Source: Centroscyllium fabricii (taxonomy: Eukaryota). From it: 64,000 nucleotides of DNA. This document shows positions 5,866 through 48,850 of this stretch, one piece after another; the first letter of the stretch is position 1, and each line of letters begins with the position of its first letter. The stretch covers positions 115,630,001-115,694,000 of the forward strand of contig JBNRSN020000012.1 of NCBI GenBank assembly GCA_051313645.2, read 5' to 3'. The notes under the pieces were generated by a model, which saw only the letters and a list, made by a program, of their open reading frames with translations, made no database searches and was not told the DNA's origin. A program made the position numbers and the translations under genes.

Positions 5866-8800
5866 GTGGCATGGAGACCAACCTCAAGAGTTGTTTATTT
5901 CCTGTGCAGTTGGAGGCAAAGAATCACACAGCAATTCATGTATGGATGCTGTGGACTGCCTTCTTGTTCTGGCAAGCCATAAAGCTCTCTTCCTACCCAT
6001 ACAGTTCCAGCAATATTTATTTTATATGTTGCTGACTTGCATGGACCTTCCAATACAGTCCACAGCCAGAAAGTTATGATTCCAACTGACTATTGAATGC
6101 TTTTACCAGTCGATTTGTGTGCATACACTGCTGTTTTCAGTGGTGGAAGTTCTCTCCTTCCCTTCTCACGGTGCAGACAGGGAGGATTTAGAGTTCCAGG
6201 AGTTGAATAAAAAACGGTTCACAACATTATGATCATGGAATCAGAGAATGTTAAGCATAGAAACAATCCATTTGCCCCCTCAATTTTTGCCAATGTTGTT
6301 CACCACACAAGGCAGCTACTCTAATCCCACTCTTCTGTTTGCTCAGCATCTATGATATATTAGAAATCTTACATTTGTGCACACTTCCAGTCTAAAAACC
6401 CTCATTGTTATTGCATTTTTGTCATACTTTTGTGCCATTTTTTCCCATTATGAGGTCTTATGGTCACACTGTAATTACACCCTCCCACCAATGGTGGCAT
6501 TGTAACAGCTAAACTTTGCATCTCCCAGCTCCTTAGCCTTTACTGCAGAGAAACTCTTATTGTCCAACAGCTCCACTTCTTTGCTTCCCAAATTTCTGTA
6601 TGTTTTGCTATTTAACTACAAATAATGTAAAATCAAAATATTGTATGAAAATAAGGGCAGAATGTATGACTTTATAATAGTGACTGAATTTCATGTGTGT
6701 GCCCTGATCCAATTATCCCACACCCTCTAATCCCGCTTCACTCAAAGACTATATGCCACGTTTACATATAGATTGGACTAGCCAGATTAGTAACAACACG
6801 ATGGAGGAAGAATTTCTGGAGTGTACACGAGACGGTTTCCTAGACCAAAATGTCGAGGAACCAACTCGGGATCAGGCCATCTTAGACTGGGTACTGTGCA
6901 ATGAGAAAGGATTAATTAGCAATCTTGTTGTACGAGGCCCATTGGGTCGGAGTGATCATAATATGATCGAATTCTCACTCAAGATGGAGAGCGAAGAAAT
7001 TGACTCAGAGACTAAGGTCCTGAATTTAAGTAAAGGGTACTATGATGGTATGAGACGAGAGTTGGGTACAATTGATTGGGAGGTGTCGCTCAGGGGGCTG
7101 ACGGTGGATCAACAATGGCAGGCATTCAAAGATTGAATGGAAGAAGCGCAGAGCTTGTTTATACCAGTTGGGCATAAAAATAAACCAAAAAAGGTGACTC
7201 AACCGTGGATAACAAGGGAAATTAGGGATAACATAAAATCCAAAGAAAGGGCATATCAACTGGCCAAAAAAAGCACCAAACCTGAGGATTGGGAACAATT
7301 CAGGTTACAGCAAAGGAGGACAAAGGGATTAATTAAGAGGGGGAAAATAGATTACGAAAGAAAGCTTGCGGCAAACATAAAAACTGACTGCAAAACCTTT
7401 TATAGATACATTAAAAGGAAGAGACTGGTGAAATCCCGAGTCGGGCCCTTGCAGTCCGAATCAGGAGAATATATAATGGGGAACAAGGAAATGGCGGACC
7501 AATTAAATTCATATTTTGGTTCTGTCTTCACAAAGGAGGACACAAATAACCTCACAGAGATGTCGGGAAACATAGGGACTAATACAAGGGAGGAACTGAA
7601 AGAAATCAATATTTCTAAGGATATGGTGTCCAGGAAGTTGAAGGGATTAAAGGCCGACAAATCCCCAGGGCCTGATAATCTGCATCCTAGGGTGCTTAAG
7701 GAAGTGGCCCTGGAGATATCAGATGCTTTGAGGATCATTTTCCAGAACTCAATAGACTCTGGAATGGTGCCCATGGATTGGAGGGTGGCTAATATTACCC
7801 CACTATTCAAAAAGGGGGTTAGAGAGAAAGCAGGGAATTATAGACCGGTAAGCCTTACATCGGTTGTGGGCAAAATGCTAGAGTCCATTATTAAGGACGT
7901 AATAGCAGATCACTTGACAAATAGTGATGGGATCGGACAGAGTCAACATGGATTTACAAAATGTAAATCGTGCTTGACTAATCTATTGGAATTCTTTGAG
8001 GATGTAACTGATAAAATAGATAGGGAAGAGCCAGTAGATGTGGTTTATCTGGACTTCCAGAAAGCCTTTGACAAGGTCCCTCATAGGAGATTGGCATGCA
8101 AAATTAAGGCTCATAGGATTGGGGGCAGGGTATTGACGTGGATAGAGAACTGGTTGGCAGATAGAAAACAGAGAGTTGGGATAAATGGGTCGTTTTCGGA
8201 TTGGCGGGCAGTGACTAGTGGGGTACCGCAGGGGTCTGTACTGGGACCCCAGCTGTTCACAATATATATTAATGACCTGGATGAGGGAATTGGATGTAAC
8301 ATCTCCAAATTCGCAGATGACACTAAGCTAGGAGGGGGGGTATGCTCTGAGGAGGATGTCCGGAAGCTCCAGTACGATTTTGACAGATTGGGGGATTGGG
8401 CGAATACATGGCAAATGCACTATAATGTGGATAAATGTGAGGTTATCCACTTTGGTAGCAAAAACAGGAAGGCAGATTATTATTTGAACGGCAATAGATT
8501 GGGAGAGATGGGAAAGTGCAAAGAGATCTGGGTGTTCTTGTGCACCAGTCACTGAAGGTGAGCATGCAGGTGCAGCAGGCGGTTAAAAAGGCAAATGGTT
8601 GTTACCAAATTAACGACCTCGGAGATGAGATATTAAGAGGTGAAACAATCGGCTTTTATTAGCTAAAGGTGGACATGCACCAGCTAGTCGACCGTCCCCA
8701 GGAATGGCCGGGGGAAGGGAGACGGCCGCCTATGTACCTGGTCCTGGGAGGGAGGAGTCACAGGCGGAGCCAGCATGGGCATGTCCAGGTGATCACACAC

Positions 8801-9167
8801 ACAGAACTATTATACAACATGGTTCAAGGGTGGTTACAGTAGGTTACAGTAATATACATATATATACATAAAGAGTGGTTTACCACATTCACCCCTTCTT
8901 TAAAACAAAAGTCCAGCGGGGTGAATGCGACAGTTCTTTTAAATTACAGGTTCAGTCTTTCGGGCGGCCTGGTTGATTGGCGCACCGCTGGTGGTGGTGT
9001 CGGCGGACGAAATGTAGCCGGTTGAGTTGGTCGTAGCGAGATCGGCGGGGGCGTTCGGTTCCTCGTCGGTGCCCTTGTGGTGACGGTTGGCGGCGCGCTC
9101 TCCCCCTCGTCGTCTGACTCTTGGGCGCGTGCACTGTGGAGCCATGCCGGGGGCCATGCCGTGCTGC

Positions 9168-9960
9168 CTACAGGTGCCGGGTGGACATACTGTGGTGCTG
9201 GAGTCTCGTACTGGGCAGCGTACCTTGGTGCCGGTGGCCCGGGGGGGGGGTGGCTGGCAGGTGTGGGGGCGCGGGCTGTTGGGCGGGGCTGGTCTCGGGG
9301 GCACCCGCTGGTGCCAGGTCCTTGATGGACACTGTGTCCTCCCTCCCGTCGGGGTATGCCACGTAGGCATACTGGGGGTTGGCGTGCAGGAGGTGGACCT
9401 GTTCGACCAGGTGGTCCGACTTGTGGCCCCTCACGTGCTTCCAGAGTAGGATTGGTCCTGGGGATGATAGCCATGATGGCAGCGAGGTCCCAGAAGCCGA
9501 CTTCCTAGGGAAGGCAAAAAGTCGCTCGTGAGGGGTGGTGTTAGTGGCCATTCAAAGGAGTGACCAGATGGAGTGGAGCGCTTCGGGGAGGACGTCCTGC
9601 CAGCGGGAGACTGGGAGGCCTTTAGACCGTAGGGCTAACATGATGGCCTTCCAGACCGTGGCGTTCTCCCTCTCCACCTGTCCGTTCCCCCGGGGGTTGT
9701 AGCTGGTAGTCCTGCTAGTAGCAATGCCTTTGGCTAGCAGGAACTGACGCAGCTCGTCACTCATGAAGGAGGCCCCCCAGTTGCTATGAATGTAGCTGGG
9801 ATAGCCGAACAGGGAGAAAATGCTGTGGAGGGCCTTGATGACTGTGGCAGAGGTCATGTCCGGGCAGGGGATGGCGAAGAGGAAACGCGAGTATTCGTCG
9901 ATGACGTTCAGAAAGTACACGTTCCTGTTGGACGAGGGAAGGGGCCCTTTAAAATCGACG
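9168..9960 (-). pseudogene. Gypsy integrase core and C-terminal region (disrupted)
   Basis: SVDFKGP..YFLNVIDEYSRF..IHSNWG (D>N)..PRGNGQVER; frameshift near 9975 and in-frame stop at 9552. Confidence 0.9.
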
Positions 9961-9969
9961 CTGAGTCGC

Positions 9970-11385
9970 TCAAAGGGGGCGGGTGGCCTTGATCAGGTGC
10001 GCCCGGTCTGGCCGAAAGAAGTGCGGCTTGCACTCCGCACAGACCTGGCAGTTCCTGGTCATGGTCTTGACCTCCTCGATGGAGTAGGGGAGGTTGCGGG
10101 ACTTAACAAAATGGACCAACCTGGTGACCCCCGGGTGGCAGAAGTCGTTGTGCAGGGTTTGGAGACGGTCCACTTGTGCGCTGGCACATGTACCGCGTGA
10201 TAGGGCATCTGGGGGCTCATTGAATTTCCCGGGCCGGTACAAGATATCATAATTGAAAGCGGAGAGCTCAATTCTCCACCTCAGTATCTTGTCGTTCTTG
10301 ATTTTACCCCACTCTTTGTTGTTGAACATAAAAGCGACTGAGCGTTGGTCAGTCAGCAGGGTAAATCGTTTGCCGGCCAGGTAGTGCTTCCAGTGTCGCA
10401 CTGCTTCAACAATGGCCTGGGCCTCCTTCTCGACTGAAGAGTGACGGGTCTCGGGGCCCTGGAGGGTACGTGAGAAGAAGGCCACGGGTCTGCCTGCCTG
10501 GTTAAGGGTGGCGGCCAGGGCAAAGTCCGATGCATCGCTCTTGACCTGGAACGGGATGGACTCGTCCACAGCGTGCATCGTTGCCTTCGCAATGTCGTCC
10601 TTAATGCCGCAGAACACCACGCGGGCATCTGCTGACAGGGGGAATGAGGTCGATTTAAGTAGTGGGCGGGCTTTGTCCGCATAGTTGGGGACCCACTGGG
10701 CATAATAGGCGAAGAACCCCAAGCACCTTTTGAGGGCCTTGAGGGAGTGGGGGAGGGGGAGCTCCAGGAGGGGGCGCGTGCAGTCCGGGTCGGGACCGAT
10801 GACCCCATTCTCCACAACACTGCCGAGGATGGCGAGGCGGGTGGTCCTGAACACACATTTTTCCGTGTTATATGTCAGGTTCAGTGTTTTGGCGGTGTGG
10901 AGACATTTCTGGAGGTTGGCGTCATTGTCCTGCTGGTCGTGGCCGCAGATGGTCACATTATCGAGATACGGAAAGGTGGCCCGCAGCCCGTACTGATCGA
11001 CCATTCGGTCCATCTCCCTTTGGAAGACCGAGACACCATTGGTGATGCCAAACGGGACCCCGAGGAAGTGATAGAGGCGGCCGTCGGCCTCGAAGGCCAT
11101 ATAGAGACGGTCCTCTGGGCGGATGGGGAGCTGGTGATACGCGGACTTCAGATCTATAGTTGAGAAGACCCGAAACTGCGCGATCTGATTTACCATGTCC
11201 GCTATCCGGGGAAGGGGGTACGCGTCTAACTGGGTGAACCGGTTAATGGTCTGGCTATAGTCCACTACCATCCGGTTCTTCGCTCCGGTCTTCACCACCA
11301 CTGCCTGCGCTCTCCAAGGGCTGTTACTGGCCTCGATGTCCCCCTCCCTCAGGAGGCGCTTCCCCTCGGACTTGATGAAGTCCAT
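9970..11385 (-). pseudogene. Gypsy reverse transcriptase, RNase H and integrase zinc finger
   Basis: SPWRA, RMVVDY, DLKSAYHQ, PFG, YLDN, SDASDF, EKEAQA, TDQRS, H..CHPG...CQVC. Confidence 0.95.
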
Positions 11386-12863
11386 GTCCCCGGTACTGTA
11401 GCACCTACTTTTGGTGGCGACGGCTTGCAGACCGGGGTGAGGTTAGCAAAGAGCGAGGGAGGGGCGACCTTAAGGGTCGAGAGGCCACAGGTAGCGCGCT
11501 GAGGATGCTGCGAGGAGCGCTGGTTGCAGACCGTGAGCGGGGGAAGGGGCCCACCGTACGCCATGGTAACGCTCTGGAGGTGGCACTGGAAGTCCAGGCC
11601 CAGTAATAATGGAGCGCAGAGCTGCGGCAGCACGAATAATTTAAAATTGCTAAAGTGCACGCCCCGTACCATCAGAGTCACCGCGCAACGCCCGCAGACG
11701 TCCGCGGATTCCGACTTTGATGCCATAGAGATCTTTTGGCTCGCCGGCGCAACCTTAAGAGAAAAGCGCTTTACTGTTTCAGGGTGGACGAAACTCGCCA
11801 TACTCCCGCTGTCGAAGAGGCACTCGATGCTCCGCCCGTTCACCTCCACCATCATCATTGACCTGCTGAGAGGTTGCGCCTTGTTCTGATCCAAGGTGAT
11901 GGATGCCAGTATCGGGTCGGTCGAGTGGTCGTCGTTTGGGTCCGTTGAGAGGTCTGGGGCCTGGTCCCAAGATGGCTGCCGCCATGTGGTGTACTGCGGA
12001 GGGGGTGGCTGGGACCAAGATGGCGTCTGCTGCCACGTGGTGGGCTGTGTTGAAGATGGCTGTGTCCAAGATGGCTGCCCCCACGGCCCACACGCGGCTC
12101 TGCCTGGTTTCGATTGCTGCATTGCAGCTGCTTTGCAGACTTTGGCATAGTGTCCTTTCTTGCCGCATTTCGAGCATGCTACGTCTTTTGCCGGGCAGTT
12201 CCATCTCGGGTGCTGAGACTGCCCGCAGAAATAGCATTTGGCCGTCTTAGAGTGAGCGGCCGCAGTCATCTCTTCCGCCGGTCGCGGCGCCGGCGATGTC
12301 CAATTTGGCGGGGCTGGGCCCGCGTAGTTGCCTGAATACGATGATAGGTTCAGCGATGCCATATCCAGCGCGTTGCCCAGGTCCGCTGTCGCCTGCAGGT
12401 CAAGTCCGTTCTGTTCCAAAAGTCTTTGGCAAATATAGTCCGACCTGAGGCCAGTCACGTACGCGTCCCTGATCAGGCTGTGGACCTGGGCCAACTGCGA
12501 CCTGCAGTTACAGGCCCGGCAGAGTACTCTCAGCGCGCGTAGGAACTCCACGCTGGACTCACCGGGTTGCTGTTTTCTGGTAGCCAGGAGGTGTCTGGCG
12601 TGGACGAGGTTAGGTGTCCGGTTGTACTCCGCTTTGAGGATCTGGATTGCATCTAGGTACGATGATGCGTCTGCGATCATGGAGTATACTTGAGGGCCCA
12701 CCCGGGCATTGAGGAGACGCCGTTTGTCCTCCTCGGTCCTGACGACTGCCGCGTTCGCCTTGATGAACGCATCAAAGCAGTCGAACCAGTGCGTAAAGGG
12801 ATTTGATGCGCCTGGTGTCCGGAGGTCCAGCTCGAACGTTGCTGGTTTGAGCATCGATTCCAT
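11349..12863 (-). pseudogene. Gypsy Gag (two CCHC knuckles) and aspartic protease
   Basis: CYFCGQSQHPRWNC, CSKCGKKGHYAKVC, LFDSGS; separated from RT by an apparent mutational frameshift near 11420. Confidence 0.92.
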
Positions 12864-14081
12864 CGTTAAATTTAGCTAATAAAATTGTTAACGAATTAAC
12901 GACCTCGGAGACGAGATATTAAGAGGTGAAACAATCGGCTTTTATTAGCTAAAGGTGGACATGCACCAGCTAGTCGACCGTCCCCAGGAATGGCCGGGGG
13001 AAGGGAGACGGCCGCTTATGTACCTGGTCCTGGGAGGGAGGAGTCACAGGCGGAGCCAGTATGGGCATGTCCAGGTGATCACACACAAAGAACTATTATA
13101 CAACATGGTTTAAGGGTGGTTACAGTATATATACATAAAGAGTGGTTTACCACAATGGTATGTTGGCCTTTATATCAAGTGGGTTTGAGTATAGGAATAG
13201 GGATGTCTTGCTGCAGCTGTACAGGGCCTTGGTGAGGCCACACCTTGAGTATTGTGTGCAGTTTTGGTCGCCTCATCTGAGGAAGGATGTTCTTGCCATG
13301 GAGGGAGTGCAGCGACGATTCACCAGGCTAATACCTGGGATGGCAGGAATTACTTATGAGGAGAGTTTGTGTCATCTGGGCTTATACTCGCTGGAGTTTA
13401 GAAGATTAAGAGGGGATCTCATCGAGACTTATAAAATTCTGTCAGGTCTGGACAGGTTAGATGTAGAAAGGATGTTTCCGATGGCGGGGGAGTCCAGAAC
13501 CAGGGGGCATAGTCTAAGGATAAGCGGTAAGCCATTTGGGACTGAGATGAGGAGGAAATTCTTCACACAGAGAGTGGTGAACCTGTGAAATTCTCTGCCA
13601 CAGAGGGCGGTGGAGGCCGGTTCATTGAATATATTCAAGAGGGAACTGGATATATTTCTTCAGGCTAAAGGGATTAAGGGATATGGAGAGAAGGCAGGGA
13701 CAGGGTACTGAACTTGTAAGATCAGCCATGATCTCATTAAATGGCGGAGCAGGCTCGAAGGGCCGAATGGCCTACTCCTGCTCCTATCTTCTATGTTTCT
13801 ATGGTAGATCGACCAGTATCCTTCAGCATTTCTCTTTTTCAAGAAACTTAGAAAATTCCCTCTTTAAAAGAAGAACAACAATGGTTTGTGGCAGACAATT
13901 CCGCACTATAATTGAGTCTTTGTGTAAAAGTTTTTTTCCAACCTCTCGTTTTAATTTTTTTCATGATTATTTTAAATATGTGTCCTCTCATGCTGTCTTG
14001 CTGAGTAGTGGAAACATTTTATCACTATTTACTTATCATAATCTTTTTTAATTTTGAAAATCTAAGTTCTCTTGTCTCTTC

Positions 14082-14353
14082 ATAACTGTAATCCCTCAAT
14101 ATAACTGTAATCCCTCAATATAACTGTAATCCCTCAATATAACTGTAATCCCTCAATATAACTGTAATCCCTCAATATAACTGTAATCCCTCAATATAAC
14201 TGTAATCCCTCAATATAACTGTAATCCCTCAATATAACTGTAATCCCTCAATATAACTGTAATCCCTCAATATAACTGTAATCCCTCAATATAACATGTA
14301 ATCCCTGAATATAACTGTAATCCCTCAATATAACTGTAATCCCTCAATATAAC
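14082..14353. repeat. 19-bp minisatellite (ataactgtaatccctcaat), about 14 copies
   Basis: Near-perfect tandem copies with no spacers. Confidence 0.97.
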
Positions 14354-14371
14354 ATGTTACCCCAGCCCCCA

Positions 14372-14943
14372 TCTTATTGAAACATATAAGATTGTGAGAG
14401 GGCTTGATCGGGTGGATGCGGTGAGGATGTTCCCAATGGTGGGTGAAACGAGGACTAGGGGGCATAATCTTAAAATAAGGGGCTGCCATTTCAAAACTGA
14501 GATGAGGAGAAACTTCTTCACTCAGAGGGTGGTGGGGCTGTGGAATTTGCTGCCCCAGAGAGCTGTGGAAGCTACTACGTTGAATAAATTTAAAACTGAG
14601 ATAGACAGTTTCCTGGAATTAAAGAGAATTAGGGGTTATGGTGAGCGGGCAGGTAAGTGGACGTGAGGCTAGGTTCAGATCGGCCATGTAATCTCCTGGA
14701 CCAGTTTTCGATCGCCTAGATGGAACGGAGAGGAATTTTCCTGATTTTTTTCTCCCAAATTGGCCACTGGGTTTTTTATCTGGTTTTTCGCCTCTCCCAG
14801 GTGATCACATGGGTCTGGGCAGGGTGGAGAGTAAAAATAAAATTGAGGTTAGGATCAGATCAGCCATGATCTTGTTGAATGGCGGAGCAGGCTCGAGGGG
14901 CCGATGGGCCTACTCCTGCTCCTATTTCTTATGTTCTTATGTT
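14372..14943 (+). mobile_element. CR1 3' fragment (long-3'UTR subfamily)
   Basis: TRGHNLK..RRNFFTQRVV..WNLLP; 3'UTR nearly the same as 54452-54725; (ttcttatg)n tail. Confidence 0.93.
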
Positions 14944-25072: not shown

Positions 25073-25320
25073 TGATGCGCTATCAATATCTCCAAAAGAC
25101 TAGAGGTTATACAAGTAACAAATAGGCTTTTATTCATTAAAGAATGAGAGCATGCCTCTGCTGATCAACTGGTCTAGGACTGAAGGGGGGTTGGGAAACA
25201 GTCACCTTTATACCTGGGTCTGAGGGAGGAGCCACAGGCGGAGTCAGCAGGGGCATGTCCAGCTAGGTTACATACAGCAGGTCAGAGTGAACTATAATAC
25301 AACAACAGTGGTTTACCACA
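25073..25320 (-). mobile_element. Solo LTR related to the Gypsy LTRs at 8600 and 12886
   Basis: TG...CA ends; shared ggagccacaggcggag and gtggtttaccaca; near-TSD CTCAC/CTTAC. Confidence 0.85.
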
Positions 25321-33365: not shown

Positions 33366-33884
33366 AATTCAATTCAATTCAATTCAAATTGCTTTATTCA
33401 AATGGCTTTATTGGCATGACAAGATACATCTTATGTTGCCAAAGCACAGAAAAAGGACATATACAATTGAACATACAAACGCATAACTAGACATAGTGAA
33501 TGGATAACGATGCAAACACATACATATATACCCGCATATAGATCTCATATGTTCTTATTAGCTTCAGCGGTGACTGTTGTCCCTCTGCTTATGGCAAGCT
33601 GTGATGTAGTTTGCCGTTAATTTTATACAGTCCCTCTGTTCCCCCAATAGATATGGGAGTTTTTGGTGGTCGTTCAAATTTTTGAATTCAGGGCATGTTT
33701 TTTAAATTTTGGGTAGAAATTCCCCCTTATGCCCTAATAGTTTTCGCAAGTTGTGAGGAAATGCAGCTCTGTCTCCACCACTCCCTGACTGCATTGGGAG
33801 CACAGCCTTTCCTCTCTGGGCAGCCAAGTCTTTCTGTGTCTGCCTTTTTCAATGGCTAGGCTGTGCTCACTAAGTCTATACATT
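33366..33884 (-). mobile_element. RTEX-type LINE 3' fragment
   Basis: YRLSEHSLAIEKGRHRKTWLPREERLCSQC..ETELHFLTTC zinc knuckle; (TTGAA)n tail; agtgttcta repeated on both sides. Confidence 0.85.
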
Positions 33885-34260
33885 GGAGTGTTCTACCCGC
33901 GCGCTCTGAGCCCCAGGGAGTGTTCTACCCGTGCGCTCCGGGCCCCGGGGAGTGTTCTACCCACGCGCTCTGAGCCCCGGGGAGTGTTCTACCCACGCGC
34001 TCTGAGCCCCGGGGAGTGTTCTACCCGCGCGCTCTGAGCCCCGGGGAGTGTTCTACCCGTGCGCTCTGAGCCCCGGGGAGTGTTCTACCCGCACGCTCTG
34101 AGCCCTGGGGAGTTTTCTACCTGCGCACTCTGAGCCCCAGGGAGTGTTCTACCCGCGCGCTCTGAGCCCCGGGGAGTGTTCTACCCGCGCGCTCTGAGCC
34201 CCGGGTAGTGTTCTACCCACGCGCTCCAAACCCCAGGGAGTGTTCTACCCGCGCGCTCCC
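33885..34260. repeat. 32-bp minisatellite (ggagtgttctacccgcgcgctctgagccccgg), about 12 copies
   Basis: Direct tandem copies. Confidence 0.97.
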
Positions 34261-34849
34261 CCGAACCTTCAGTGGTTCGGAATTTTCAGTGGTCCGGCAC
34301 CGGCCTGGCCCCGAGGTTGCCGGATTACTGGTGCTCAACCGGTATCTATTAAGTTGCCAACCAAATATCCAGAAAATATGAACAATTCAAAAAGTTGCAA
34401 ATGAATAATCAGAAGCAAGCTGAGCAATCAAGCCCCTCAATGTTATTCCAAAGTTACCATTCACAACCTAGAAAGTATTACAAAACTGCCCAATCAAATT
34501 GCTCAAACAATTTCTTCACACTATTTTCAACTATCATTTTTCTTCTTCATTGTATTTATCAGTCAGTGCATTAGTTTGGAAATAATCTTTGCAAACATAA
34601 AGAATACATCAAAAATGCCAAAATTCTGAAATGCTCACTGGGCTTACCCATAACTTTGGCTGTTCAGTGTTCGAAGTATCTGCAAGAAATTTCCATCAGA
34701 CAAGCCGACTCTATTTTCAAGAACCTGGATCATGAGTTAAGAATTTGACCCTGGCCAGAGTGTGGCTGGTTTCCAGCTTTTGTGGAGAAAGTATATAGGG
34801 GTAATTTTAACTTCTATCGTCAGATGAAAAATGGGTGATAGTGAACTAT

Positions 34850-35985
34850 GGGCGCGAAATTCGTGTGTGCACGAATTGGGGCGCTAAAATTGGCGCGGCG
34901 CAAAAATTAGCACCGGCAGTAAATTAGCGCTGGAGCGCCCGTTATTCACTTCTGTGCCGGCCTTGCAGTTTGCGGCGCTAATTCTAGCGTTGCACCGCCC
35001 AATTTCATGGCGCTAATTGCCGATTGCGGGCGCAGCGCTCCTTCAGCAACTTTTTGCTTTCCCATGAACTCTGGAGCCAGACAGGTCTTAAAAGGGGTAG
35101 GGGAAGCAGTGCATGATGTGTCGGCACCCCTCCCTCATCATCTCCCCGATCTCTGCCAATGCCCCTCATCTTCTCCCCGATCTCGACCGACCCCCCTCAT
35201 CATCGGCCGGATCTCGGGCCGCCCGACCCCCCTCATCATCTGCCCGATCTCGGGCCGCCCGAACCCCTCAGCAACTGGCCGATCTCAGGCTGCCCGAACC
35301 CCCTCAGCAACTGGCCGATCTCGGGCTGACCCCCCTCCCGCAGCAACTGGCCGATCTCGGGCTGACCCCCCTCCCGCAGCAACTGGCCGATCTTGGGCCG
35401 ACCCCCCTCCCGCAGCAACTGGCCGATCTCGGGCTGACACCCCTCCCGCAGCAACTGGCCGATCTCGGGCTGACCCCCCTTCCACAGCAACTGGCCGATC
35501 TCGGTCCGACCCCCCTCCTGCAGCATCTGGCCGATCTCGGGCTGACCCCCCACCGCAGCAACTGGCCGATCTCGGGCCGACCCCCTTCCCGCAGCATCTG
35601 GCCGATCTCGGGCTGACCACCCCCTCTCGGAGCAACTGGCTGACCTCGGGTCGAAGAGGCTACCAAGGAAAGGGACGGTCGCCCTTTTAGCAGCGCTGCA
35701 GCGGCCACTCAGACCCTCAGCAGCGCTTGCCAAATCTGGCGCTGGCAGCGCTGCGCCAGGGGGTCTGATGCAAAGGCGAATTTTCGGCACAGCCCAGCGG
35801 GCGGGCGTTACACCCGGATATGCACGACGATTGGTGATTGCAAATTAGCGCGCGCTAACAGCGCCGGCGCTAATCACTGGGTGAATCTTGGCCGCGGTGC
35901 TAAATTGGTTGCGCCCAGCGCTAAAATCTGTAGTGCCCATTTTTCGGCGCTAAACGGACGGCGCTAAGGTGCCAATTTTGTACCC
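34850..35985. mobile_element. Harbinger-type MITE nested in an older MITE (~34798-36066)
   Basis: TSD TAT; GGGCGCGAAATT/AATTTTGTACCC termini; many gcgctaa/ttagcgc motifs; host has an imperfect inverted repeat. Confidence 0.8.
35175..35650. repeat. ~36-bp minisatellite (cccctcccgcagcaactggccgatctcgggctgacc)
   Basis: Tandem copies; source of the periodic ORFs at 35007-35790. Confidence 0.95.
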
Positions 35986-38321: not shown

Positions 38322-40086
38322 TGATGTGGAGGTGCCGGTGTTGGACTGGGGTGGACAAATGCAAGAAGTCACACGACACCAGGTTATAGTCCAACAGTTT
38401 TATTTTAAATCACAAGCTTTTGGAGCATCTGCCCCTTCGTCAGGTGAAAGAGAAGCTGACTTAAAGACAGCACATACGGGAGGGAGAGAGAAATCTGATG
38501 TGGGAGATCAGATTTCTCTCTTCCTCCCATATGTGCATTCTTTAATGCCCCAGTTTCACTGGAGGCTAATGCCCCAGTTTCACTGGAGGCTACGAATTGC
38601 CGAATCGTGCCGATTGTGAAATTTGGCCGATTCGTGGGTAATTCTTGCGATTCGTAGTGGATTCGTAGTGGATTCGTAGTGGATTCGTAGCGGATTCGTA
38701 GCGGATTCGTAGAGTTCGCGGAAGTTCGCGGGATTTCCTTGAGGTTTCAAGAAAGTTTTTGTTTGTCAAAAAATTTCGTGGGAGGGTTCACGAATGCCCA
38801 ATTCGTGATAGATTCCTAAACAATTCTTGACCCTTTCTTACCATTCTTAACCCTATCTTACCGTTCGTAACTGATTCGTAGTGGATTCCTAGTGCATTCT
38901 TGCCTATTCTTGGGCATTCTTGATTTTTTCAAATTCGTGGAAAAACGCCGAATTCATCACGAATGTCCACGAATGTCCACGAATGTCCACGAATGCACTA
39001 CGAATGCACTACGAATGCAATTCGTAGATAATTCGTAGCTAATTCGTAGAATTCGTAACTAAATCGTGGAGGTCGTAGTGGATTCGTTAATTAATTCTTC
39101 ATATTCGTGAGTGATTCGTACCTCATTCCTACAATAATTCGTGATAGATTCGTAACCTTGTCCAGAATCGCCAAGAATTCACCAAGAATCGCCAAGAATC
39201 AACCAAGAATTTTCGCATTTTTTGCAGAATCGCCAAGAATTTCGATTCTTGACGATTCTTGATATTCTTGACATTCTTAGCCTCCAGTGAAACTGGGGCA
39301 TAAGAATGTCAAGAATATCAAGAATCGTCAGGAATCGAAATTCTTGGCGATTCTGCAAAAAATGCAAAAATTCGTGGTTGATTCTTGGCGATTCTTGGTG
39401 AATTCTTGGCGATTCTGGACAAGGTTAAGAATCTATCACGAATTATTGTAGGAATGAGGTACGAATCACTCACGAATATGAAGAATTAATTAACGAATCC
39501 ACTACGACCTCCACGATTTAGTTACGAATTCTACGAATTAGCTACGAATTATCTACGAATTGCATTCGTAGTGCATTCGTAGTGCATTCGTGGACATTCG
39601 TGGACATTCGTGATGAATTCGGCGTTTTTCCACGAATTTGAGAAAATCAAGAATGCCCAAGAATAGGCAAGAATGCACTACGAATCCACTAAGAATCAGT
39701 TACGAACGGTAAGAAAGGGTCACGAACGGTAAGAAAGGGTCACGAATTGTTTAGGAATCTATCACGAATTGGGCATTCGTGAACCCTCCCACGAAATTTT
39801 TTGCCAAACAAAAACTTTCTTGAAACCTCAAAGAAATCCCGCGAACTTCCGCGAACTCTACGAATCCGCTACGAATCCGCTACGAATCCACTACGAATTG
39901 CAAGAATTACCCACGAATCGGACAAATTTCACAATCGGCACGATTCGGCAATTCTTAGCCTCCAGTGAAACTGGGGCATAAGTCAGCTTCTCTTTCACCT
40001 GACGAAGGGGCAGATGCTCCAAAAGCTTGTGATTTAAAATAAAACTGTTGGACTATAACCTGGTGTTGTGTGACTTCTTGCATTTA
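38322..40086. mobile_element. Penelope-like inverted pseudo-LTR element (family P2) interrupted by nested MITEs
   Basis: 10-bp TSD TTTGCACTCA (38312-21, 40087-96); inverted arms; ~33-nt one-sided extension; hammerhead-like ctgacga...(g>a)aaagcttgtga. Confidence 0.8.
38546..39978. mobile_element. Harbinger MITE with a second, inverted copy of itself (38570-39300) inserted in its TIR
   Basis: TIR TGCCCCAGTTTCACTGGAGGC occurs four times; TAA TSDs at 38543/39979 and 38567/39301; interior of short gattcgtagtg/cacgaat repeats. Confidence 0.92.
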
Positions 40087-48040: not shown

Positions 48041-48850
48041 ATAAGATAAGATAAGATTCAATTTATTGTCATTGTAAAGTGAACATACACAGAACAACGA
48101 AATGCAAACATGCAATCTCCCAAATTATTAAATGTCCTTGGTCCCAGTCTGATCCTTTCCATCCCACCAGGCGCTGCAGCCACGATGCCAGGGGAGTGGA
48201 CAGAGCAAACCCCTGTTCCATCTCACCGAGCCCGACGGCACCACGACTCCTCGAGCCCCACGGCTCTCCCGAGGCCCACGGCCCGACGGCTCCTCGAGCC
48301 CCACGGCTCTCCCGAGGCCCACGGCCCGACGGCTCCTCGAGGCCCACGGCTCTCCCGAGGCCCACGGCTCTCCCGAGGCCCACGGCCCGACGGCTCCTCG
48401 AGCCCCACGGCTCTCCCGAGGCCCACGGCCCGACGACTCCTCGAGCCCCACGGCTCTCCCGAGGCCCACGGCCCGACGGCTCCTCGAGCCCCACAGCTCT
48501 CCCGAGGCCCACGGCCCAACGGCTCCTCGAGCCCCACGGCTCTCCCGAGGCCCACGGCCCGACGGCTCCTCGAGCCCCATGGCTCTCCCGAGGCCCACGG
48601 CCCGACGGCTCCTCGAGCCCCACGGCCCCACGACTCCTCGAGCCCCACGGCTCTCCCGACGCCCACGGCCCCACGAGGCCCGACGACTCTTCGAGCCCGC
48701 TCTCAGCACCCCGGCGCTCCGACGACCGCGACGGCTTGTTCAGCACCGGTGCCCCGATTGAGGAGCACCGGTGCTCCACTCCACCGACCCCGCCGTCCTC
48801 TCCAGGAACAGTGCGGGACCAGGGACACTAAAAAAACGGGAGACGCAAAG
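48041..48850 (-). mobile_element. Non-autonomous retroposon with a Rex-like 3' tail
   Basis: Interrupts the Rex frame at SCI|VWYGNC; tail caatgacaataaattgaat(cttat)n similar to the host LINE tail. Confidence 0.7.
48228..48700. repeat. 43-bp GC-rich minisatellite (gagccccacggctctcccgaggcccacggcccgacggctcctc), about 11 copies
   Basis: Tandem copies built from two related subunits. Confidence 0.95.

Follow-up and report, generated by a model that had tools for sequence, protein, structure and literature searches.

A Covarying Self-Complementary Primer Site Suggests tRNA-Independent Self-Priming in an Animal Gypsy Clade Apparently outside the Chromoviruses

Introduction

How does a Gypsy retrotransposon that lacks a tRNA primer-binding site begin reverse transcription? 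The question is raised by a 4.55 kb Ty3/Gypsy element on the minus strand of a 64-kb stretch of Centroscyllium fabricii DNA (hereafter the window, meaning the whole stretch analysed), which carries a self-complementary site at its 5' end, the primer position being an exact complement of part of the element's own LTR. To our knowledge, self-priming has so far been tested only in fission-yeast elements of the Tf1 type. Tf1 has its first 11 bases paired to the primer site, with RNase H cleavage falling between bases 11 and 12 (available sections of PMC7175516). Tf1-like self-priming has been proposed for Tj1 of S. japonicus (PMC4600332, in part) and is also predicted for Tcn1 and for plant TAR copia elements (PMC6317226, in part), and the portions of the literature at hand treat it as a mark of the Tf1/sushi group and a few plant lineages.

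The Window Element

The features of the element, in its own 5' to 3' order, are as follows.

13155..13159 (-): target-site duplication (TSD) on the element's 5' side, ACCAT, with an identical 5-mer at 8595-8599
12886..13154 (-): 5' LTR of 269 nt, TG...CA, from LTR comparison
13015..13022 (-): TATA-like box, 72 nt ahead of the 11-nt core, with TATAAAG at the aligned place in a sister solo LTR
12940..12953 (-): LTR arm, the proposed self-primer, 14 nt, with the conserved 11-nt core at 12950-12940 and AATAAA at 12946-12941
12940/12939 boundary (-): proposed cut, where the LTR arm ends on its 3' side
12885..12939 (-): loop of 55 nt that would serve as template for the strong-stop DNA, made up of R-U5 and a single spacer base (A at 12885)
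12871..12884 (-): primer-binding position, an exact complement of the arm by reverse-complement comparison, lacking TGG
11349..12863 (-): Gag, whose two CCHC knuckles lie at 12236-12135, and aspartic protease; the reading frame is broken close to the PR/RT junction
9970..11442 (-): RT (catalytic motif YLDN), RNase H and the start of the integrase zinc finger, from domain matches in translation
9168..9992 (-): core and C-terminal portion of the integrase, its frames broken, with no chromodomain found
8888..8901 (-): polypurine tract just before the 3' LTR, from sequence
8600..8887 (-): 3' LTR of 288 nt, with a copy of the arm at 8667-8654 that has no local partner
8595..8599 (-): target-site duplication on the element's 3' side, ACCAT

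The domain order Gag-PR-RT-RH-IN, the TG...CA termini of the LTRs, the 5-bp TSD and the polypurine tract are those of Ty3/Gypsy elements, and the top relative with a solved structure is the Ty3 RT (158 bits). Two CX2CX4HX4C knuckles are found in the Gag translation; these, and the 5-bp TSD, had both been reported in a preliminary description of the locus. Between the two LTRs there are 7 substitutions over 269 columns, and gaps amount to 19 nt. The window copy is decayed, since its frame is broken near PR/RT, near RH/IN and in the integrase tail, where full-length relatives keep a single ORF of ~1150–1240 aa. The closest named proteins are those of Hypanus (81% over RT-RH), Mustelus and Scyliorhinus.

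Some further features of the RT and of the window were recorded. The RT motif is YxDN in place of YxDD in the window element (10959-10970, minus strand), in 25/29 loci and in 7/14 of the proteins parsed. It is present in open ORFs of 1187–1234 aa in copies whose LTRs are 99–100% identical, that is, young and intact, and it clusters in a single subclade of 37 rows, some of them YxDD. A full-text literature search for YLDN gave no match. Elsewhere in the window there is a long nested palindrome (38566-39982) with arms of 321, 314 and 125 nt, 95–98% complementary and built of 10–11-nt repeats, and there are tandem arrays at 14082-14372, 33821-34322, 35193-35628 and 48183-48712, with units of 19, 32, 36 and 43 nt.

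The Self-Complementary Site

The 5' LTR is followed by a single A and then by a 14-mer (12871-12884) that is the exact reverse complement of 12940-12953 within the LTR, with a loop of 55 nt; the next pair fails on both sides. TGG is absent, which excludes priming by a tRNA 3' end, and the Gag ATG lies at 12863, only 22 nt past the LTR. The AATAAA of the LTR sits within the paired arm. The 14-bp inverted repeat, the AATAAA in one of its arms, the missing TGG and the 22-nt distance to the Gag ATG, all given in the preliminary description, are borne out by the sequence. ARAGORN found no tRNA gene in the 64-kb window nor in the 47 scanned of 82 relative loci, and an Rfam search over 12800-13200 gave only three sub-threshold matches, with no match to a tRNA model at E up to 10.

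Perfect inverted repeats of at least 12 bp are no rarity in the window, with 45 entries listed for loops of up to 300 nt, many of them within one palindrome or in poly-A, and for this reason the argument against chance rests on position. Chance pairing was modelled with a dinucleotide model of the 269-nt LTR and a site starting 0–3 nt after the LTR; under this position-matched null, pairing of at least 13 bp was seen in 0/20,000 LTRs, with a maximum of 12 against the 14 observed. The fold of 12864-12956 has a predicted energy of -23.4 kcal/mol (z -6.05, 0/200 shuffles as stable), and with 50 nt more context the z-score is only -1.91 (11/200 shuffles). Directly after the 3' LTR comes flanking sequence. 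It is flank, and not the primer site, that adjoins the 3' LTR, so a local hairpin is impossible there, as had been claimed from the outset: the local partner is absent.

Other copies of the family were surveyed by aligning contigs of four public sequencing runs to 12500-13250, and most of the further copies have an identical site. Among the variants listed, the only substitutions in the arms are A>C at 12947 (LTR arm) and T>G at 12877 (primer site). These are partner positions, and a joint change would restore the pair. The shares of depth for 12947 A>C and 12877 T>G are 29% and 0.9% in run X1, and 60% and 76% in run X11, frequencies that are per-run contig depths with each position counted separately, and so do not represent linkage on one contig.

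Relatives and Covariation

Relatives were collected with an alignment of 30 Gag sequences, giving 80 metagenome loci (the best 80 of 131 confirmed) and two genome-contig loci. Seven loci in which the match started at a contig edge were dropped, and the scored set of 75 loci plus the window (76 sequences) fell into 24 families at 80% nucleotide identity. Named relatives come from sharks and rays, Trichinella, Trichuris, an ascidian, Hydra, corals and a stick insect, and intact relatives have short LTRs and a single ORF near 1200 aa. Scans of viral contigs, run with Gag and with RT, gave no relatives. Two contigs labelled as bacterial MAGs (L081, L082) also contain this Gypsy element in the same LTR layout and are likely to be eukaryotic DNA in the bins.

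A duplex with the family's own LTR, at a site right after LTR-CA|A, is present in 21/24 families. The preliminary description had named missing complementarity in related families as the observation that would count against it; what was found is the opposite, a complementarity that is both present and covarying. Of the three families lacking the duplex, L079 is truncated and L016 has just 92 nt upstream. The third, L013, has a clear LTR-end/spacer junction ahead of Gag with no partner in its 118 nt upstream, and is a possible exception or a contig-edge effect. Across all 76 sequences, the 11-nt core pairs 11/11 in 36 and at least 10/11 in 58; the 18 that score lower mostly have a truncated Gag start, a contig edge or decay.

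Of the 21 family representatives, 18 have a fully paired core (11/11) and three pair at 10/11, a sample that favours the result, being the best-scoring copy per family with one (L048) re-anchored by hand to the LTR end. Among 420 cross-family control pairs, 11/11 occurred in four and 10/11 in 35. There are 19 different cores among the 21 families, the spacer is A in 21/21, and a TGG primer site within 0–5 nt of the 5' LTR occurs in 0/21. Changes on both sides are seen at 14/16 alignment pairs, compensatory double-change cells number 78 against 22.9 ± 3.9 in shuffles (0/500 as high), and the covariation score is 0.64, against at most 0.15 with the partners slid. Gag identity among the 21 families is 30–78% (median 48%); the Gag tree was poorly resolved, with the window row on a long branch, and served for identities only. 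In eight loci from three other families, the LTR end is set by a second LTR together with a 5-bp TSD.

The duplex has one ragged and one sharp end. Pairing beyond the core, at positions 12–15, is found in 19, 18, 17 and 14 of the 21 (cross-family rates 0.28, 0.43, 0.66 and 0.38) and at position 16 in five only; the total length ranges from 11 to 18 bp. At the LTR-end side, the next base pairs in 0/21: in every one of the 21 a G or an A follows the arm, opposite the spacer A, and the arm itself ends just ahead of R-C-Y. There are no G-U pairs in the core (0/231 cells). Loop length varies from 24 to 72 nt, and the primer site ends 0–38 nt ahead of the Gag start, the spacing to the ATG being variable and the spacing to the LTR end always one base. 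The position, perfect pairing, covariation and fixed register of the primer site are established by these data.

Adjoining Hairpin

A short hairpin, typically RCCT with AGGT, opens at the first base after the arm and has at least 4 bp in 17/21 families, against a mean of 5.0 and a maximum of 11 families in 2000 shuffles; stems at other offsets reach at least 4 bp in 8–13 of 21. The hairpin beside the arm is moderately supported as a real feature. In the window element the loop opens with GCC, there are only 3 bp at the hairpin's place, and a U5 stem is predicted instead. G-U pairs make up 16/89 of the pairs in the hairpin, and the contrast with the core fits a hairpin acting at the RNA level next to a duplex in which one strand is re-copied from the other. 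Lin and Levin are said, going by a title of 1998, to have described a supporting RNA stem of the U5-IR kind next to the primer duplex. Two other leader structures were considered and rejected: a generally stable U5 fold (loop z below -1.5 in only 6/21, median z -0.26 relative to shuffles) and a conserved leader hairpin upstream of the arm (z +0.42 and +0.98).

Transcript Start

The window also contains a solo LTR of a sister family:

25073..25320 (-): solo LTR of 248 nt, TSD GTAAG/GTGAG, which has TATAAAG and, where it aligns with the window element's arm, an arm of its own

Full-length copies of this sister family are predicted to carry a different primer site, absent from the window, that is complementary to their own arm. 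The TATA box stands 72 nt ahead of the core in the window element and 74 nt ahead in the sister solo LTR, and in the public runs a G>A variant at 13020 converts the TATA-like box to TATATAAG, a canonical TATA, at ~33% (X1) and 72% (X11) of contig depth. The position of the box suggests a start near 12991, 38 nt before the arm. With a start ~38 nt upstream, the primer may be internal in the fish families and bear a 5' tail, unlike the layout of Tf1. Among the 21 representatives, a TATA-like motif ~30 nt ahead of the core was found in 0/21, and L076 has only ~40 nt of LTR before the core; both observations would suit transcription beginning at the arm or close to it. A strict initiator at the first base of the core finds no support, the preceding base being a pyrimidine in 11/21 only. 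For Tf2, the choice of start site can decide whether the self-primer is included (PMC5341516, in part).

Both LTR families also have, at an aligned place, a perfect match to RRRCWWGYYY, which we take to be the p53 half-site motif (13063-13072 and 25251-25260, both minus strand).

Proposed Mechanism

From the arrangement of the site, and by analogy with Tf1, we consider it likely that this animal Gypsy clade, which by its domains lies outside the chromoviruses, uses tRNA-free self-priming. The element RNA would fold back so that the LTR arm pairs with the primer site, and RNase H, a domain of which is present in the window element, would cleave where arm and RCC meet, so that the paired arm is freed at its 3' side, by analogy with Tf1. 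The RCCT/AGGT hairpin that begins at the next base would probably guide this cut. The cut arm would then prime reverse transcription, the RT copying 24–72 nt as strong-stop DNA, and strand transfer would rely on the R bases that lie from the cut to the poly(A) site. At every loop length the arm's 3' end faces, in the same register, the base adjoining the LTR end, and the sharp stop of the duplex at the LTR-end side (0/21) fits what is required of a primer 3' end.

In retroelements, the primer site is regenerated from the primer during plus-strand synthesis. Here, plus-strand synthesis would re-copy the primer site from the self-primer in each cycle, and this would account for a site that follows the LTR by Watson–Crick pairs alone.

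A fuller scheme can be sketched, which we hold to be rather doubtful as a whole. Self-priming would have evolved independently in this clade, and the primer would be the poly(A) signal itself, as an internal piece of a TATA-driven transcript in the fish families; a single fold-back would first hide the 5' AAUAAA during transcription, later be cut in the particle at a site marked by the stacked RCCT/AGGT hairpin and be extended by the YxDN RT, with the primer site re-copied from the LTR in each cycle.

Polyadenylation Signal and Alternative Explanations

A(A/T)TAAA lies inside the arm in 16/21 families, and in 15 the hexamer and the arm finish on the same base. In HIV-1, AAUAAA is held in a stem at the 5' LTR, the 5' poly(A) hairpin. 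By folding, AATAAA in the window element is predicted to be unpaired with a probability of 0.10 in the 5' LTR, against 0.90 in the 3' LTR plus flank, and taking away the primer site leaves the hexamer slot more exposed in 20/21 representatives. These models make it quite possible, if somewhat short of probable, that the duplex contributes to hiding the 5' poly(A) signal. Masking is not the general reason for the duplex, because five of 21 arms (L003, L012, L033, L056 and L076) have neither AATAAA nor ATTAAA and keep the duplex, and in three (L001, L003 and L071) a further hexamer stands in the loop, outside the duplex. Four of the five (L012, L056, L033 and L076) have neither hexamer anywhere from the core to the LTR end, and in three of these four the arm closes with AGA and the primer site has the C that matches. 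Masking may be a second use of the duplex, and is not its common cause. The preliminary description had proposed that one fold-back could both supply a tRNA-independent primer and silence the 5'-LTR poly(A) site: the self-complementary primer site is strongly supported by covariation in 21/24 families, while silencing is plausible on the modelled exposure and fails as a general cause.

The alternative that survives best, and which we still judge unlikely, takes concealment as the main function: the duplex would hide the 5' poly(A) signal much as in HIV-1, with a built-in 5'/3' asymmetry, and priming would occur by other means. The frequency of the hexamer in the arm, its place at the arm's end and the folding results are what this reading would expect. 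It has to accommodate the five arms that pair without a hexamer and the three loops with an extra one, and it leaves the element with no primer site at all (TGG 0/21). A stem acting only as RNA would, moreover, allow G-U pairs and would have no need of a fixed one-base register to the LTR end, and poly(A) signals near the cap are weak anyway.

Somewhat less probable again is that the fold-back is a packaging, dimerisation or translation-control structure beside the Gag start, with priming by another route of the kind proposed for Skipper or the fungal GalEa. The site does end within 0–38 nt of the Gag start, and how priming works is unexplained in other elements that lack a tRNA site (PMC5006619 and PMC5445492, both in part); however, it is the distance to the ATG that varies widely and the distance to the LTR end that is constant at one base, and a purely Watson–Crick core fits a templated copy better.

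We give still less credence to priming by a tRNA fragment ending in the D-arm, pairing through G-U pairs and merely mirrored by the LTR arm. The idea draws on the core consensus (W-G-Y and W-A-R-A separated by four variable bases, followed by GC), which presumably resembles a tRNA D-loop, and on primer-site positions 6–7, which are pyrimidines able to pair with the invariant GG in 17/21 families; half-tRNA priming has also been reported for copia lineages (PMC6317226, in part). Copying of a tRNA should, however, reset positions 6–7 to CC, and CC is found in 2/21. There are, besides, 19 different cores, each matching its own LTR with positions 12–15 included; the poly(A) hexamer also accounts for the consensus, and no tRNA model matched 12800-13200 at E up to 10.

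Finally, a chance inverted repeat or a one-off rearrangement in the window copy, for which the AT-rich arm and the other perfect 12–15 bp inverted repeats of the window might speak, can be set aside as having a negligible probability, given 0/20,000 nulls of at least 13 bp, covariation in 21 families and the same site in most public-run copies.

Classification

Neither a chromodomain nor SH3_Tf2-1 (GPY-F) was detected in any of 10 full-length relatives at E 0.05, and none was found in the C-terminal ORF of the window element; SH3_Tf2-1 was detected in 2/25 outgroup proteins. A FastTree tree of RT-RH was built from the 138 rows kept by coverage from the window and 174 proteins. It places the window element in a clade of 78 rows, with SH-like support of 100, separate from 60 further Gypsy RTs that include the SH3_Tf2-1-bearing P0230 and P0172, in a tree that holds no named Tf1/sushi element.

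The element had been called Mag-like at the outset, and Cigr-1 is, we presume, also a candidate clade. The protease flap reads MAS, LAS, MAQ, MAL or MAT in 12 relatives, and the integrase tail is mostly GPVL-like. For the Mag cluster, the GyDB marker table gives the flap states TITG, TANG, NANI, GFDG and GDDS and a GxV/I integrase motif (PMC2774666, supplement 3, in part). Two CCHC arrays occur in most Mag members and are shared with Cigr-1, Osvaldo, Micropia, Gmr1 and Tor4 (PMC2774666, in part). The two CCHC knuckles thus agree with a Mag-like assignment, whereas the MAS/LAS flap matches no listed Mag state in a by-eye comparison, and membership is not established. Troyka was rejected, as it needs CG...CG termini and a 3-bp TSD (PMC12440569, in part), against TG...CA and 5 bp here.

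Significance

If self-priming is confirmed in this widespread animal Gypsy clade outside Tf1/sushi, tRNA-free priming would be more common than supposed and would probably have arisen more than once. The signature of the clade is sharper and covaries, and gives a base-level prediction of the cut site. Priming would also become linked to a long-standing puzzle, that of an element's disregard for its own 5' poly(A) signal. On the practical side, the whole clade would escape LTR finders in which a tRNA primer site is used as a filter. The available portions of PMC6934838, PMC3601003, PMC6238403, PMC11117352, PMC3026039 and the PMC8556966 supplement mention no site of this kind in an animal Gypsy clade other than the chromoviruses, and a full-text literature search, in a corpus that leaves most subscription journals and Repbase Reports outside its coverage, returned no description of this clade's signature.

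Comparison with Known Systems

The clade can be set beside several known systems, each of which shares part of its features. The Mag cluster and the Cigr-1 clade are alike in having two CCHC arrays, no chromodomain and no env (PMC2774666, supplement 3, in part), and differ in the flap, MAS/LAS being outside their listed states, a comparison made by table states and not by tree. The dictyostelid Skipper, with a polypyrimidine site, and the fungal GalEa, with a conserved hairpin site, likewise have no canonical tRNA site, but as described in the available parts of PMC5006619 and PMC5445492 they are without an LTR complement, which the present clade has.

HIV-1 shares the AAUAAA held in a stem at the 5' LTR. 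It differs in using a tRNA primer and in having its hairpin inside R, where it can form at both ends, whereas here the partner lies outside the LTR and pairing is confined to the 5' end.

In the plant Ty1/copia TAR lineage (Houba, Osr-1), self-priming was predicted from an LTR complement of at least 10 bp located 0–5 nt after the 5' LTR (PMC6317226, in part), and the window element has such a complement. These elements belong to another superfamily and another kingdom, and no link to a poly(A) signal is noted in the available part of that source.

The closest parallel is with Tf1 and Tf2 of S. pombe, Tj1, and the Tf1/sushi and Tcn1 chromoviruses, which share the Ty3/Gypsy domain order, the lack of a tRNA site and a primer position complementary to their own 5' LTR (PMC7175516, PMC4600332 and PMC6317226, each in part). 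The 11-nt core found here equals the length of the Tf1 primer (PMC7175516, in part). Unlike the Tf1-type elements, the present clade has no chromodomain or SH3_Tf2-1, carries two CCHC knuckles and forms a separate RT clade; its arm usually ends in the poly(A) hexamer, its pairing extends over 11–18 bp and its RT is often YxDN, and in the fish families the TATA box suggests that the arm may be internal.
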